DNA of 37,793 nucleotides from a virus: the UHGV virus genome UHGV-0272092; one strand, 5' to 3'. This document shows positions 8,349 to 35,298 of this stretch, piece by piece. The translations under genes and the position numbers were made by a program. The notes beneath the pieces were generated by a model. It was given only the letters and a program-made list of their open reading frames with translations. It was not told the DNA's origin and made no database searches. Each line of letters begins with the position of its first letter. The first letter of the stretch is position 1.

Positions 8349-8363
8349 TTACCTTTCAGGTAA
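8349..8363. promoter_or_regulatory. operator-like palindrome TTACCTTTCAGGTAA
   Basis: Perfect 15-bp palindrome, identical to the copy at 24967-24981. Confidence 0.55.
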
Positions 8364-22686: not shown

Positions 22687-22979
22687 TCCTGTTCACTGGC
22701 CTCTTTGGCCATCTTCAAATACTGTTCAGGGCAATGCGCCATAACGCGCTGAAACAGTTCCAGCGCCAGATTGCGTTGCCCCTCATTAAATGCCATTGCC
22801 ATAGCATCCATCGGAGAGATAGCGGAAAACACCCGGCCTTTCTCCAGCACCGACCAGACAACGCGACGCCCCTGTTCACTGCTCATGACAAAGCGAATGT
22901 CATCAATTTCACGCTGTGCCATGTCACGTTGCTTACGGGCGTTTTCTTCTTTCAGTTGATCGTCTTCGAAATCTGTCAT
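22683..22979 (-). CDS. hypothetical head-morphogenesis protein (98 aa)
   Basis: Overlapping start/stop with portal and scaffold genes. Confidence 0.4.
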   Translation of the reverse strand: MTDFEDDQLKEENARKQRDMAQREIDDIRFVMSSEQGRRVVWSVLEKGRVFSAISPMDAMAMAFNEGQRNLALELFQRVMAHCPEQYLKMAKEASEQE

Positions 22980-24655
22980 TGTGATTGCCCACCCTGACCA
23001 CTAACTGCATTCGCCATAGCTGACAAAACACTCGGATCCGAAGTTTTAGCTTCGCTTAGCGTCTTGGCACCCTGTGCCGCCGCCATCCCCATCGCCATCA
23101 TTTGTTGCTGCTGTTGTTGCTGTGCCCGTTGCTGGCGAGCCTGCTCAACCTGTTCCTGCGGAACAATGACGGTTGGAGACACTCCGGACATATCAGCGAA
23201 TGCATCGATCGCCTGATCAACGTTGAGTTTGTCGAGAGCTTCTGGTTTCGCTTGCGCAAGTTGACCAATGAAGTTAACCGTGGACGCCAGACTGGACAGG
23301 CCGATAGACTTCTGCGCCTGAGCCATGACGGAAATGTATTCGACCTTCAGGGGCATGCCTTCCATCGCGTCAGGCGGTGTCGGCAGCATGTTTTTACGCA
23401 CCATCATCGAGAAAGCGCGGTCAATGAGAGGATTAAGACATTCGTCGTTCAGACGCTCCAGAACCGGCCCCAACATCAGAAGTTTTTCTTCTTTCATTTC
23501 GATCACCGCTTCAACAGGCATCGAGCGGGTATTGATGTTCTGCAACATCATGAACAGATCGACAAAGTAGGCGCTGTTAATGATTTGACGGGTGTCCTGA
23601 ATGTCTGCCACCAAATCTGCTGTACTGGGGTTAACCAGATAAGCAGGCCTGAAACCATCCTGACCAGTAATCTGATCGATATACGTGATGTCGCCAGGAA
23701 GAAGGGAGGCACGCTGATTCTTGAGGGAAGTCGGAGCAACCATCGGCGGATTGGTGGCTTTATCAATCAACTGCGACTTGCGCTTCTGGAGAAGCTGCAA
23801 TGCCTTAACAGGTCCAAGCGCCAGCATACCCGGGCATGATGATCCATAAACATCTTCGCCGTTAACTTCCCAGCGCGGAGCCATAATTGGAAACTCATCG
23901 AATCCGGACTCACGCAACAACTTGTCGTTATCGCCACCAACCTCGTAATAAACCGATTTGAATGGCTTGTTCTTGCTATCCAGCTTCGATGTATCGCGGT
24001 CAATGTTCGGGTAAACCGAATGCATCACTTCAATCCACTTCTCGTAGGTGCCGCTTTCCCACATGCTTTTTACGGATTCGCTGACGTTATTTAGCCCGAA
24101 CTCCTGAACAAGCTGACGAACAGTCATAGAGAACTTGCGAAAACAGGTGTCCACACTGCCACGAGGTGAGTTAGCCAGGTAGTAACTGCCTATCGGGAAT
24201 GGCATTGTGCGAATGATGTCCTCGTCATCCTCCAGCACCGCCATTGCACCAGTGCTGTATGTGCCGAGGCTTCCGTATAACTGCGGAAGAGACTGGTAGA
24301 GATTCGACTTATTGAACATATCGTTCATGCGGTTCTGAACTGCCTCAAGCCACAACTTAACAGGGCCATAGTCCATCATTTCAGGATCTGGCGTAGCCAG
24401 GCGAAACCACGGACGGGCGGGGCTTGTTATGCCTGACATCATGCCGCTGGCAAGAGTGCGCGCCGCCATAGTCCCGGTCGAATCAATAATGCGTGTATTG
24501 CGTCGATCGTTACGGTTAACCTCAGAAGTCAGAAAGCGGGAACCACGCGGGTTGATGTAATCACTCAACTCGCGCCAGTGCGGCTCGAACGACTGACGCT
24601 CGCTTTCAAGTTGTGCGAACTGTTTGTTCAATCGCTCTTTAGTTGTTTCCGCCAT
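22976..24655 (-). CDS. portal protein (559 aa)
   Basis: Size, position after terminase, RBS GGAG 9 nt upstream of ATG 24655. Confidence 0.75.
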   Translation of the reverse strand: MAETTKERLNKQFAQLESERQSFEPHWRELSDYINPRGSRFLTSEVNRNDRRNTRIIDSTGTMAARTLASGMMSGITSPARPWFRLATPDPEMMDYGPVKLWLEAVQNRMNDMFNKSNLYQSLPQLYGSLGTYSTGAMAVLEDDEDIIRTMPFPIGSYYLANSPRGSVDTCFRKFSMTVRQLVQEFGLNNVSESVKSMWESGTYEKWIEVMHSVYPNIDRDTSKLDSKNKPFKSVYYEVGGDNDKLLRESGFDEFPIMAPRWEVNGEDVYGSSCPGMLALGPVKALQLLQKRKSQLIDKATNPPMVAPTSLKNQRASLLPGDITYIDQITGQDGFRPAYLVNPSTADLVADIQDTRQIINSAYFVDLFMMLQNINTRSMPVEAVIEMKEEKLLMLGPVLERLNDECLNPLIDRAFSMMVRKNMLPTPPDAMEGMPLKVEYISVMAQAQKSIGLSSLASTVNFIGQLAQAKPEALDKLNVDQAIDAFADMSGVSPTVIVPQEQVEQARQQRAQQQQQQQMMAMGMAAAQGAKTLSEAKTSDPSVLSAMANAVSGQGGQSQ

Positions 24656-24669
24656 TTCAATGACTCCGG

Positions 24670-24876
24670 TTACTGACCAAGCAGCGTTTTACCGCTGGTA
24701 TTAGCGGTTGATGTGTCGCCCTGAGAACCGGTAAGCAGCGTAGAACTACGACCAGCAGCAGCGCGACGGCGACGAGTTTCTTCGTCGCGGGCATCAACAA
24801 CGGCGGCATCCTGCTCCTGTGGTGCTGCCTGAACTTCTGGTGTTGCAGGCACTGATGGTGAGCTACCCATGCACAT
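24670..24876 (-). CDS. small protein upstream of portal (68 aa)
   Basis: Start context GGAGTCATTGATATG is near-identical to the portal start context GGAGTCATTGAAATG. Confidence 0.45.
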   Translation of the reverse strand: MCMGSSPSVPATPEVQAAPQEQDAAVVDARDEETRRRRAAAGRSSTLLTGSQGDTSTANTSGKTLLGQ

Positions 24877-24914
24877 ATCAATGACTCCGTACGCAATTAA
24901 ATTATTACCAATTT

Positions 24915-24925
24915 AACCACATATG
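24915..24925 (-). promoter_or_regulatory. conserved element AACCACATATG upstream of the head operon
   Basis: Identical to 8309-8319; preceded by ATTACC-N5. Confidence 0.45.
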
Positions 24926-24966
24926 ATTTATTTATCGTAGGTAGTTGACATTTAACGCACAAATTA

Positions 24967-24981
24967 TTACCTTTCAGGTAA
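24967..24981. promoter_or_regulatory. operator-like palindrome TTACCTTTCAGGTAA
   Basis: Identical to the copy at 8349-8363. Confidence 0.55.
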
Positions 24982-25303
24982 CCAAAGAGTTCATTCCGGT
25001 TACTAACCTGACTGGCTTGTCGTTAAATTGAACAGGTGGAGTGAGCTTTTATTTTGAGCAGTACGGCGTATGGCACATGCGCCGATAGCGGTCTGGATAC
25101 GTTTAAGGGGCACCCTCCCTTGCTCGGGCAAACGAACCAGGTAGCCGGAATGTGCAAGTCGAGCGGTTTTATTCCGCGCACGGGGATTCACCATCCCGGC
25201 GATTCGGTGTGACGCCTCGGAAGAGACGAGGGTACAACGATGAGAGCATTTATGGAGCCGCGACAAAGTGTGGCGCCTTAACAGGCTAAGTGCTCTCAGC
25301 GTT

Positions 25304-25380
25304 GTGGCATTAGCTCAGTTGGACAGAGCAACCGCCTTCTAAGCGGTTGGTCGCAGGTTCGAATCCTGCATGCCACGCCA
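25304..25380 (+). tRNA. tRNA-Arg (anticodon UCU), 77 nt including CCA
   Basis: Hand-folded cloverleaf: acceptor GTGGCAT/ATGCCAC, D-stem GCTC/GAGC, anticodon stem ACCGC/GCGGT with loop CTTCTAA, T-stem GCAGG/CCTGC with loop TTCGAAT, discriminator G, CCA. Confidence 0.85.
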
Positions 25381-25423
25381 GAATCACGCCTAAGGACCGT
25401 GATGCCAGAAGTTCCAGGTGCTT

Positions 25424-25466
25424 GGCGGTGATGGTTTCCCTTGAAGGACTATCACCGCCCTTTTTA
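25424..25466 (+). terminator. rho-independent terminator downstream of the tRNA
   Basis: Stem GGCGGTGATGG / CTATCACCGCC followed by CTTTTT. Confidence 0.65.
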
Positions 25467-25543
25467 CAGCAGGACGCCATTGCGATGACTTCATGCTGTA
25501 AACCAGTACAGCCACGGAAGGCATAACTCATTGCTTCCAGTTC

Positions 25544-25568
25544 GCCCGGTTCGTCCGGGCATTTTTTT
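25544..25568 (+). terminator. second terminator/attenuator-like hairpin immediately upstream of the RBS of the 25581 gene
   Basis: GCCCGG-TTCGT-CCGGGC followed by A and seven T, then AAGGTG RBS. Confidence 0.5.
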
Positions 25569-25580
25569 AAGGTGAAAATC

Positions 25581-25913
25581 ATGAAAGAGAAGACTGCAGC
25601 TGAGCGCTATGCCGCAGCTATCAATGCCGCGATGGCGATTGTAAACCTGCGTGAAGAGATTAAAGATCTCCTTGCAATTATCCATAACAACCTGACATGT
25701 ACAGAGTTGCTTGGCGGTCAGTACAACGGTGAGGCGGTGAAGGAGGCATTTAAAAATGCCGAGGTAGGAATAATTCCAGCAAACTATGTCAAGGCTGAAT
25801 GTGTGCTCCTAAAGGCACGAGTGAGTCTGCATGAAGATCCTGGTAATCTCGGTCGAACTGCAATGCGTTACGTGATAGACGAGTCGAATGCCAAACACAA
25901 TCTACCGAAATAA
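25581..25913 (+). CDS. hypothetical protein (110 aa), plus-strand gene between terminase and portal
   Basis: ATG 25581 with RBS AAGGTGA; track ORF opens at GTG 25572. No family recognised. Confidence 0.55.
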   Translation: MKEKTAAERYAAAINAAMAIVNLREEIKDLLAIIHNNLTCTELLGGQYNGEAVKEAFKNAEVGIIPANYVKAECVLLKARVSLHEDPGNLGRTAMRYVIDESNAKHNLPK

Positions 25914-25916
25914 CAC

Positions 25917-25928
25917 CGTGACATGTCA
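25917..25928. promoter_or_regulatory. 12-bp palindrome GTGACATGTCAC (copy 2 of 3)
   Basis: Exact repeat of 8722-8733 and 28183-28194. Confidence 0.5.
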
Positions 25929-26003
25929 CAAACAGACAGCCTATGAGCTGGCTTTGTTTTATCCTCACCAGAGGATATCAACGACATTATCCCCACCAGC
26001 GGA

Positions 26004-27479
26004 TTAAGCATAGGGATCGTAATCTGTGATGGCCTTGCCTTGCTGGTTCTGCTGACCGGGAATTCGCAGACGCTTCGACACAGGGAACGCAAACGTCAGC
26101 AGTAGCGCATCGCCTTTACCAGGAGAACGCCCAAGTCGCTCTTTGATATCTTCCTTCGGTTCGATAACGATTTTACCGTCCACTCGAACTTTGTACTCTG
26201 CTGCCGACAGGTCGTCCGCTGTTTCCTGGTCATCCAGCATGCCGCCCAGCCTCAGCCATGTCTTGCATGAATTGAACATCTCCCCACGCTTGTTGAGCAT
26301 CTGCGGGTCAGTAGACGCGCCACCGAACGGAACAAGTTGCCATGTACGACCCCATCCGTCACCGATTGACTTCAGACCGGTTCCGTAACCGAAGTCGATG
26401 AACACCGCGTCAGCCTGATACTGGTCTTCAAAGTCAGCGATACGCTTCGCCATAATCAGATCGTCGGTAGTCTTGTTGCCAGTCCACAGCACCTTACTGT
26501 GTAGCCCCTGCCGCAGGTATATCACCGCGTCATCAACGCCTGAATATGCCGGGTCAACACCGATTATCACCGGAGCATGCGCCACCTGCGCAGCGGTTAC
26601 CACCCGTTTCATTGCCTCATCAGTAAGACCGGTAGGGATAAACTGCAATTCAGATGCATCAGGGAATATGCCGCGCACACGGATTTTAACGAAGTCGCTG
26701 TCTTCCCCGTAGTCATCAACCCATTTCTGCAACTGCTGTTTGTTAGTGCCTTCCACCGTTCGGCTGTCAATCTGCGCAGTTTTCCAGCGGTGTTTATATT
26801 TGCGGAAACATTCGCGGAAACGTCCGGTATTACGCGTCGGGTTTCCGAACGCCACCCAGATAATCTCAGTGTCTTCGTCCGTTAGTGCACCCTCGGCAAC
26901 TTCCCACACCAGATCCGCAATGTTCGACGCTTCATCGAATACCACGATGATGCGTTTGCGCTCGTTGTGTAGTCCGGCGAATGCCTCAGTGTTGTGCTCA
27001 GACCAGGGGATTGCGTCAGCTCGCCACCGCTTGTCGTGTCCAGGATCATTGCTGTACATCGCGGTAGCGGTACAGGTAAACCAGTCTTTCGTGATAGCAA
27101 GGTTCGACCACTTGATAATTTCCGGCCAGGTCTTCGTTCGTAGCTGGTTGTCGGTGTTGGCGGTCACCACGACCTTACAATCCTCGCAAGTGGACATGCC
27201 CCAGTTGATCAGCATTGAGATGAATGCGGATTTACCAATACCGTGACCCGAAGCACGTGCCAGCATAAGCGGCTGATAGCGCGTCTCTGGATTCTGCAGG
27301 TGATCACGTATCTCTCGGAACGCATCAGCCTGCCACTGACGTGGGCCGGTAGCATGTGCCAGTTCAGTCCCCTCTTCCCCCCACGGGAACGCATAGAGGG
27401 CATAGCCAAGCGGATCGTGAGTGAACCCTGCAATATCCTCGATCAACTGCTCTTCAGGAGATAACGCTGTATCTGTCAC
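26004..27479 (-). CDS. terminase large subunit (491 aa)
   Basis: Size, position downstream of the small subunit with 4-nt overlap; N-terminal ATPase-like and C-terminal nuclease-like composition. Confidence 0.8.
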   Translation of the reverse strand: MTDTALSPEEQLIEDIAGFTHDPLGYALYAFPWGEEGTELAHATGPRQWQADAFREIRDHLQNPETRYQPLMLARASGHGIGKSAFISMLINWGMSTCEDCKVVVTANTDNQLRTKTWPEIIKWSNLAITKDWFTCTATAMYSNDPGHDKRWRADAIPWSEHNTEAFAGLHNERKRIIVVFDEASNIADLVWEVAEGALTDEDTEIIWVAFGNPTRNTGRFRECFRKYKHRWKTAQIDSRTVEGTNKQQLQKWVDDYGEDSDFVKIRVRGIFPDASELQFIPTGLTDEAMKRVVTAAQVAHAPVIIGVDPAYSGVDDAVIYLRQGLHSKVLWTGNKTTDDLIMAKRIADFEDQYQADAVFIDFGYGTGLKSIGDGWGRTWQLVPFGGASTDPQMLNKRGEMFNSCKTWLRLGGMLDDQETADDLSAAEYKVRVDGKIVIEPKEDIKERLGRSPGKGDALLLTFAFPVSKRLRIPGQQNQQGKAITDYDPYA

Positions 27480-34461: not shown

Positions 34462-34523
34462 TCACCCATAAGGTAACAAAAATCAAGGATAGTTACCTAT
34501 GAGGTGCATTTACCTGTTGGGTA
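34462..34523. promoter_or_regulatory. OR-like operator cluster with three sites: TCACCCATAAGGTAA (34462-34476), TTACCTATGAGGTGC (34493-34507), TTACCTGTTGGGTAA (34509-34523)
   Basis: Three 15-bp sites in the divergent intergenic region between the Cro-like and repressor genes. Confidence 0.65.
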
Positions 34524-34579: not shown

Positions 34580-35164
34580 ATGAAAAGTATCCAGGACGTC
34601 CGCAGGCAAAATCTCAACGACTTGATCGACCGTGAATTCAATGGTGTTCAGACGCGGATGGCAGAAAAACTTGGAACTCAGGCAAATCTGGTAAACCGCT
34701 GGGCTCTTGGCAAGAAGGTTATCGGCGACCAGGTTGCACGAAAAATTGAAGCTGCCGCCAATAAACCCCGTAACTGGCTTGATATTGATCGTTCGCTTTC
34801 TCAGGAGGGTTTTCAGCCTGTCGGCCCGAGCGATATAGGTCAGCTGGCGGCTCACAACCTGGAACGCTGGATGAGCGAAAGCCGCGACCTTTCAACACAG
34901 GGAAAACTTCACCGCGCATCCGGCGTCGCCCAGGTGACAATCAGCCGCCTGTTAAACAATGAGGTCAGCGTTTCCATTTCCACCCTGGAGAATGTTGCAT
35001 CCGCATTCGGGCGTCACGGATATGAACTACTGATTCACCCGCACGACCCTGCGACTATCAACTATGACCGCTCACGCTACGCATTGTTACCCGAAACCGA
35101 GAAAGCAAAGATCGAAAGTTACATTGAATTTGTCATCAACCAGAACGAAAAAAGCAAACAATAA
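34580..35164 (+). CDS. prophage repressor, tandem HTH domains, no S24 peptidase domain
   Basis: Two XRE-type HTH-like segments (TRMAEKLGTQANLVNRWALGKK and ASGVAQVTISRLLNNEVSVS); no Ala-Gly / Ser-Lys autocleavage signature. Confidence 0.65.
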   Translation: MKSIQDVRRQNLNDLIDREFNGVQTRMAEKLGTQANLVNRWALGKKVIGDQVARKIEAAANKPRNWLDIDRSLSQEGFQPVGPSDIGQLAAHNLERWMSESRDLSTQGKLHRASGVAQVTISRLLNNEVSVSISTLENVASAFGRHGYELLIHPHDPATINYDRSRYALLPETEKAKIESYIEFVINQNEKSKQ

Positions 35165-35221: not shown

Positions 35222-35298
35222 TTACCTTACGGGTAATTTTTTTAACTCATATCTATTGACACCAAACCAAATAAGCATAATTATTACCCCAACGGTAA
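35222..35298 (+). promoter_or_regulatory. OL-like region: operators TTACCTTACGGGTAA (35222-35236) and TTACCCCAACGGTAA (35284-35298) flanking a sigma70-like promoter (-35 TTGACA 35256-35261)
   Basis: TTGACA followed 14-16 nt later by CATAAT/ATAATT; the second operator overlaps the start region. Confidence 0.6.

Follow-up and report, generated by a model that had tools for sequence, protein, structure and literature searches.

A 172-nt segment at positions 25063–25234 of the phage genome studied here (henceforth the window, 37,793 nucleotides in total) almost certainly specifies a genuine structured RNA family read from the plus strand. The family is unannotated in the records examined and unmatched in Rfam 15. 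Its RNA is very probably made early and under the control of the phage repressor, and the segment, referred to below as the core, is positionally equivalent to the put element of phage HK022. A put-analogous, cis-acting RNA that modifies RNA polymerase is the favored reading of its function, with a probability of roughly 40%.

Structure and conservation of the core

The window belongs to a phiV10-like phage (genus Uetakevirus), and positions 24877–25571 are 99% identical to phiV10. The segment 24982–25303 is part of a small plus-strand cassette set against the late genes; the portal gene (22976–24655), a 68-aa gene (24670–24876) and the TerL gene (26004–27479) are on the minus strand. The preliminary description of this DNA had placed a late-operon control module next to the segment. 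Its actual neighbors are the 68-aa and portal genes, with TerL further on, so a plus-strand cassette amid late genes does not adjoin such a module. The same description had reported about 320 bp ahead of a tRNA with no convincing ORF, which agrees with the present data: the ORFs in 24877–25303 are short and unconserved (87 aa on the minus strand, at most 52 aa on the plus strand), even the most open frame is intact in just 16 of 36 diverse homologues, and homologue lengths fall into all three classes modulo 3.

The core is present in one copy in the 37.8-kb window and scores 138.1 bits (E 7e-39) with covariance model R1, which was built from the hand-structured core alignment. From 5′ to 3′ on the plus strand it contains helix H1 (25064–25084), the P2 domain (25093–25140, closed by the C-G pair 25093–25140), an invariant 19-mer GGUAGCCGGAAUGUGCAAG (DNA GGTAGCCGGAATGTGCAAG; 25140–25158), helices H3 (25163–25177) and H4 (25182–25197), the linker GGCGAUUCGGUGUGAC (25198–25213) and helix H5 (25215–25231). 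Invariant blocks alternate in the alignments with blocks that vary in both sequence and length, as hairpin tips do. The short stem-loops noticed earlier in 24982–25303 are real, and the hairpin singled out as an example, GGGGATTCACCATCCC, is the conserved helix H4, which carries compensatory changes.

Covariation was evaluated on the hand-built structure using 36 sequences differing by at least 7% and 500 shuffles of pairing partners. Paired cells amounted to 97.2% in the observed alignment, compared to 87.7% with shuffled partners and 29–44% with partners slid by 1–3 columns. Cells changed on both sides numbered 72, compared to 20.9 and 2–12 in the respective controls, and the observed values were reached by none of the 500 shuffles. 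Double-sided pair changes occur in each of H1, P2, H4 and H5; P3 is invariant and hence uninformative on pairing, for or against. At the two pairs that close P2, U-A alternates with C-G and G-C with A-U, and none of 65 distinct variants shows a mismatch. An RNAalifold pairing of GGUCYGG with CCGGA was discarded and replaced by this cleanly covarying closing helix. Comparative alignment with related phages, suggested in the preliminary description as a check, therefore does reveal compensatory base changes in the conserved core. G-U pairs were found in 19 and 34 sequences at two H1 pairs and in 15 at H4; on the opposite strand each would become an A-C mismatch, which identifies the plus strand as the RNA strand. 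Single-sequence folds gave z scores of -2.25 (plus strand) and -2.61 (minus strand); being only mildly better than shuffles, they mean that folding energy alone proves nothing.

A second core copy was observed in locus L034 (3996–4153, minus strand), about 800 nt after the intact one. It is decayed, having lost several invariant bases and helix pairs, and illustrates an unselected copy. An opposite-strand membrane-protein gene separates the two copies in what looks like a moron insertion with duplication. Hypothetical CDSs annotated antisense over the tRNA or the conserved RNA, phiV10p04 (L001, 3434–3685) and mEp460_037 (L003, 2943–3311), are probably annotation artefacts.

These CDSs, together with mosaic neighborhoods and clear shuffling of modules, are what could be cited for the segment being no RNA at all, but either the remains of a gene or a signal at the DNA level (for recombination or packaging, for example) that spreads by horizontal transfer. 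That explanation can scarcely be credited given the lack of a conserved reading frame, the compensatory changes that keep the helices, the frequent G-U pairs, which are functional on one strand only, and the L034 duplicate, whose lost invariant bases show the appearance of decay.

The core family was found in 83 GenBank phage records, at one place per record. By BLAST, 25063–25310 is approximately 83% identical to stretches in unrelated lambdoid phages (cdtI, mEp460, 2H10, Stx2c and Stx2a phages), and its first 165 nt are 77–81% identical to P1, P7, D6 and SJ46; the 19-mer is invariant in the lambdoid and P1-type phages matched. At least 120 IMG/VR contigs were retrieved with the 19-mer. A looser two-gap pattern returned 27 contigs from bacteria represented by one genome per species, 23 of which were confirmed by HMM. 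These came from Enterobacteriaceae-type genera in 22 cases; the remaining one is labelled a Bacillota MAG and is probably a mis-binned contig. Among complete E. coli genomes, 1840 of 5426 carry the core, and 554 places are on plasmids.

No RNA annotation of the core was present in any record examined. The scan with Rfam covariance models, another check proposed earlier, came back empty for the core: in Rfam 15 the tRNA is the sole match to pass the gathering threshold, and at E values up to 10 over 24600–25700 there is no plus-strand match to the core, the two minus-strand matches touching its edge being at chance level (~14 bits, E 3–4). Full-text literature searches covering sequence strings, put, P1 ban/trnI and large phage RNAs returned no description of the element, which may nonetheless have been mentioned elsewhere. 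A P1 transcriptome preprint gives gene-level changes only and nothing on the core region.

Transcriptional control and modular architecture

A putative plus-strand promoter lies at 24945–24973, with a -35 hexamer TTGACA (24945–24950), a 17-nt spacer and a -10 hexamer TACCTT (24968–24973); transcription is predicted to start near 24980. The preliminary description had held that this TTGACA lacks a properly spaced -10 element. A strict sigma-70 consensus scan of 24700–26100 indeed returned no promoter, this site included, but the arrangement TTGACA-17 nt-TACCTT is retained in relatives (TTGAC and ATTACCTTT are kept in those from Klebsiella, Salmonella and Enterobacter) and is overlapped by a phage operator; from this we infer that it functions as a promoter.

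The operator is the palindrome TTACC-N5-GGTAA (24967–24981), which overlaps the -10 hexamer and occurs eight times in the window versus ~0.2 expected. The remaining copies are at 8349, 28090, 32161, 32223, 34510, 35222 and 35284. The copy at 34510 lies between an HTH repressor gene (34580–35164) and a divergent cro-like ORF, and those at 35222 and 35284 closely follow the repressor gene and precede an operon with a YqaJ-type exonuclease among its genes. Copies flanking the repressor gene and the cro-like intergenic position identify the palindrome as the operator of the phage repressor. The copy at 8349 has exactly the sequence found at the RNA promoter (ATTACCTTTCAGGTAA) and suggests that a further promoter under repressor control exists well away from the immunity region.

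Comparable placement was found in other lineages. In cdtI-type lambdoid phages cI is followed by a terminator, a pL-like promoter and then the core, and the operator type of this promoter is that of the cI-cro intergenic region. The same order is annotated in mEp460, 2H10, mEp390, Stx2a_1447 and a Stenotrophomonas-labelled phage. In P1 the core is located between trnI and ban, in the C1-controlled ban operon. Repressor-linked placement in the phiV10-type, lambdoid and P1 lineages puts the core RNA, with high probability, in an early transcript silenced by the prophage repressor.

Positions 24980–25466 would accordingly be read as a single early, repressor-controlled unit consisting of promoter/operator, an upstream hairpin module (M0), the core, a long hairpin (M1), tRNA-Arg(UCU), a small hairpin and a terminator. 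The earlier label of a possible phage small RNA was right in that the element is an RNA and undersold it otherwise, the predicted primary transcript being ~490 nt long with several modules and a terminator. M0 (24984–25056, AAAGAGUUCA ... UGAGCUUUUAUUUUG) has the loop motif GUCGUUAAAU at 25019–25028, and what look like M0-type modules with a GUCGUUAAA loop recur before or after the core in relatives.

M1 (25235–25304, CAACGAUGAGAGCA ... UGCUCUCAGCGUUG) directly follows the core and shares its final base with the start of the tRNA. Its helix is kept by the variant pairs GAUGAGAGCA/UGCUCUCAGC, AGGUAAGAGCA/UGCUCUUUCC and AGCAAAGCGCA/UGCGCUCUGC, and duplex energies of -17 to -27 kcal/mol were obtained with a strand's own partner versus a median of -7 with swapped partners. 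The variable tip of M1 ranges from 50 to 250 nt among relatives. A boxA reading of GUGCUCUC/GUGCUCUUU within M1 was rejected; these bases covary with the opposite strand, so the helix is what is conserved. T-arm-like hairpins, such as CUGGUUCAAUUCCAG and GGUUCGAUUCC, were observed in the M1 tip of L005 (SPN9TCW, ~2790–2900) and also of L015, L016, L107 and L111, which places tRNA-like pieces at two sites of the unit.

The tRNA-Arg(UCU) gene (anticodon TCT in the gene; 25304–25380, plus strand) was identified by ARAGORN and by Rfam at 73 bits, and it encodes its CCA end. In most relatives M1 is followed instead by a multi-helix domain closed by GUUGUGGUG/CACCACAAC with a conserved first and last hairpin and, in folds of 40 variants, a cloverleaf-like outline. 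The close relative L051, homologous to the window on both flanks, has a 94-nt cloverleaf-like domain in place of the tRNA, and L105 has a degenerate tRNA at the site of that domain. Among 136 core copies, 29 are followed by tRNA-Arg(UCU), 17 are preceded by tRNA-Ile2 (P1 type) and 90 have no tRNA within 700 nt. The occupation of the cloverleaf-domain site by a tRNA and the existence of tRNA-less copies make the tRNA an optional insert or passenger in a larger RNA unit.

The suggestion that the tRNA is processed from a longer precursor is well taken, as the leader is very likely co-transcribed with tRNA-Arg from the upstream promoter, and the further suggestion that this leader could itself be functional has been borne out to the extent that it is a conserved structured RNA. 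That the leader exists for the tRNA does not hold. An ordinary precursor leader, aiding only the transcription or maturation of tRNA-Arg with no function of its own, would fit the shared promoter and the abutment on the tRNA 5′ end, yet it is very improbable: the distribution already contradicts it, both through the 90 tRNA-less copies and through the 17 with the tRNA upstream, and conservation and covariation go far beyond the needs of a spacer.

Downstream of the tRNA, a conserved hairpin AUCACGCCUAAGGACCGUGAU (25383–25403) is found that also follows the tRNA or the cloverleaf-like domain in relatives, where the order is the cloverleaf-like domain, a hairpin AUCACG...CGUGAU and an intrinsic terminator. 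Terminator scanning located two intrinsic terminators on the plus strand. The first, t1 (25424–25466), is a 14-bp stem followed by CUUUUU and is conserved in relatives; the second, t2 (25544–25568), is GCCCGG-UUCGU-CCGGGC followed by AUUUUUUU and lies directly before the ribosome-binding site of a 110-aa ORF (25581–25913, plus strand, from the ORF list). This ORF belongs to phrog_27507, of unknown function, and has no match in Pfam, and promoter scanning found no promoter-like site between t1 and its start. Both t2 and the start region AAGGUGARAAUCAUG are conserved in L051. The gene behind the terminators varies, being phrog_27507 here, Sf6 gp66-like in phiV10 and BUCT554, and DUF2829 in the Klebsiella phage ST512-KPC3phi13.3; with a conserved start region and a changing gene, the site behaves like a cassette. 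An automatic count of terminators and first ORFs over 118 contexts was set aside, because the finder requires perfect stems and short loops and picks spurious ORFs within the RNA.

Positions 25513–25568, a hairpin plus t2, gave a sub-threshold Rfam match to RyhB (22 bits, E 0.23). AUUGCUUCCAGU is common to this region and the RyhB consensus, and UUGCUUCCAGUU, from the same region, is kept in L051. The segment may be a small RNA 3′ module, or the match may be due to chance.

Comparison with put and candidate modes of action

HK022 carries put in both early operons (putL and putR), where it acts in cis through the beta-prime zinc-binding domain of RNA polymerase with no protein factors, and lambda nutL/N and HK022 putL/nun swap at one slot. 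The HK022 put RNA lies just after pL, measures ~70 nt with two stems, and causes RNA polymerase to read through terminators without a protein; the ten put sequences of King et al. 2011 used in the same study are all put-type (PMC9378689). A put set of 58 distinct variants was assembled from 120 IMG/VR loci, with HK022 and HK639 added.

The two elements are unlike in sequence and in size. Covariance model R1 did not match HK022 putL or putR or the HK639 putL-like element at E values up to 10, so that the RNA annotated as ‘putL-like’ in HK639 lies outside the core family. An HMM of the 58 put variants scored cores at 3.2 bits or less, compared to up to 6.8 bits for shuffled cores. Homology to put had been considered by eye from the likeness of H1 to the base of put stem I (ACGGCG...CAUGCGUCG), and was rejected because R1 misses put and the HMM is at chance; the likeness is suggestive and not significant. 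The core further differs from put in size and fold (~170 nt, five or more helices and a junction, versus ~70 nt and two stems), in occurring once per genome rather than as putL plus putR, and in being present also outside the lambdoid phages, in P1 and phiV10-like podoviruses.

As to position, both elements occur in the same leader, and in loci taken as ~10-kb pieces the core was found in none of 120 put loci (1.2 Mb) and the put motif in none of 158 core loci (1.37 Mb). On the upstream side, L220 (a put locus) can be aligned at 71–75% over 1.0–1.4 kb with three loci of the core type, L157, L034 and L043; the alignment breaks off 15 nt short of put and roughly 110 nt short of the core. On the downstream side, L202 matches Tyrion at 95% over 119 nt, L167 matches L066 at 92% over 130 nt and L282 matches L150 at 88% over 127 nt, with the alignments beginning just after put on one side and just after core plus M1 on the other. 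Homologous flanks around elements that never occur together indicate that core plus M1 replaces put in a shared leader, much as lambda nutL/N and HK022 putL/nun stand in for each other. As with put, the lambdoid phages concerned lack a recognized N, and the core is found just downstream of a repressor-controlled early promoter and upstream of terminators in the same operon. On these grounds the core is the positional equivalent of put, and a cis action on polymerase is putative.

Some put-type leaders (L212, L214, L229 and L259) have a strong ribosome-binding site and a mini-ORF of 2–6 codons after put. In L212, AUGUGCAAGUCAAGCGG matches the core sequence AUGUGCAAGUCGAGCGG (window 25150–25166) at 16 of 17 bases, and put-type and core-type leaders may share a sub-module.

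In the proposed mechanism, the nascent core would fold just behind RNA polymerase and, in the manner of HK022 put, act on the very enzyme that made it. With pausing and termination thereby suppressed, transcription would run on past t1 and t2 to the gene beyond. [quoted passage not shown] Where the transcript starts and stops, how it is processed and how it acts on RNA polymerase are all predictions. Both here and in the lambdoid examples, intrinsic terminators do separate the core from the co-oriented gene that follows. In six carriers, the genes that come first behind the leader gave no match to N-type antiterminator families. RNA-mediated, put-like antitermination has been proposed for a related phage without N (PMC12315714). 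The slot, the repressor control, the downstream terminators, the absence of a recognized N in the N slot and this published remark together point to a cis role on polymerase. Several findings count against it, namely the single core per genome, the lack of statistical similarity to put, and the arrangement in P1 and L077, where the core leads directly into a gene with no terminator between. In the window, moreover, the short unit faces converging late genes, so persistent antitermination would yield antisense TerL RNA. Finally, tRNA or tRNA-like modules at the edge suit the release of a free RNA by RNase P equally well.

Such a release is the basis of a different explanation, in which RNase P and the terminator free a stable RNA of ~320 nt (M0, core and M1) that acts in trans. 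Soon after induction it would bind some factor of the host or the phage; it might serve as a decoy or sponge for a protein of defence or RNA processing, or form a tRNA-linked particle of the GOLLD/ROOL kind. The unit comes with a promoter and a terminator of its own, a tRNA or tRNA-like module marks its exact 3′ edge (5′ edge in P1), T-arm-like hairpins occur in the variable tips, and an invariant 19-mer amid varying helices is what a binding surface would be expected to look like; in phiV10-type phages, too, the unit is a small accessory cassette with a variable gene and does not precede a long operon. This explanation, the main competitor of the cis model, is nevertheless considered somewhat less likely than it. 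The only operator-bearing promoter seen on that side of the repressor gene in lambdoid phages lies upstream of the core, so early-left transcripts must traverse it; in some copies a gene follows at once, with no terminator before it; that put and the core are exchanged between homologous flanks speaks for a role in cis; and the Rfam GOLLD and ROOL models do not match.

GOLLD and ROOL are phage-borne, multi-domain RNAs with variable inserts that often lie beside or enclose tRNAs. The core unit resembles them in being phage-borne, multi-domain and tRNA-associated with variable inserts, whereas it is much smaller, has no Rfam match at E up to 10, and is found in promoter-proximal leaders of Enterobacterales phages as opposed to Firmicutes or lake metagenomes. 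The C4 RNA of P1/P7 and the CI RNA of P4 are phage regulatory RNAs cut from a longer early transcript via tRNA-like features with maturation by RNase P; they are antisense RNAs of ~70–80 nt with known target sites. The abutment of a tRNA or tRNA-like domain on the conserved core recalls these systems, but the core has no Rfam C4 match and no target complementarity was identified.

Similarities to protein-dependent antitermination were also noted. The core stands at the start of the early-left operon, as in the lambda nut/N and rrn boxA systems, H5 (CCUCG-GAAGAGA-CGAGG) recalls the purine loops of boxB, and in some relatives a perfect boxA (GCUCUUUAACAA) comes right after the core. In contrast to lambda, no N-like gene was detected in the N slot and the conserved part of the core is far larger than a nut site; in contrast to rrn, the core copy in the window is without boxA. 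Perfect or near-perfect boxA sequences (GCTCTTTAACAATCTGG) were observed directly after the core in L096, L040 and L053 and after put stem I in L221 and L238, from which it appears that some phages may combine the RNA with Nus-factor antitermination. The early-left leaders of L012 (~1870–2560) and L084 contain at least eight small hairpins CCGG-GAAAGA-CCGG, often preceded by UGAC, that resemble H5 and boxB loops and could be repeated binding sites for one protein.

A sensor leader, either riboswitch-like or a tRNA-sensing attenuator, was also weighed. Its junction would bind a metabolite, an ion or an RNA and set termination downstream, as might be expected from the large multi-helix junction with many invariant unpaired bases, the 5′ leader position upstream of terminators and the association with tRNAs. 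It is improbable, as the modules and distance between core and terminator vary widely, no alternative antiterminator pairing is apparent, and the downstream genes have no common metabolic theme. T-box-like tRNA sensing in particular (the H1 loop UGGC together with AGA in the H5 loop) was rejected: the loop UGGCAC never varies, the neighboring tRNA has G as its discriminator base in the window and A in Klebsiella and Salmonella relatives, and a loop that stays constant while the discriminator changes does not support such a reading.

Significance for phage early expression

To our knowledge, no kind of RNA other than put reprograms bacterial RNA polymerase with no dedicated protein factor. If the cis-acting reading is true, the larger and unrelated RNA found in the put slot would offer a second example for structural and mechanistic study. 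In its fullest form the proposal is of a second, structurally unrelated class of RNA that makes polymerase termination-resistant without a dedicated protein, present in about one third of E. coli genomes and gating the early expression of Stx2 phages, P1-type plasmid prophages and phiV10-like phages; it is advanced tentatively and with more doubt than credence. Whatever its function, a covarying 170-nt RNA carried by one third of sequenced E. coli, absent from Rfam and from annotation and at present hidden under spurious hypothetical CDSs in reference phage records, is an omission that merits correction. Early expression in Shiga-toxin phages and P1 has this element at its very first step, so that induction, toxin release and transduction may be affected.
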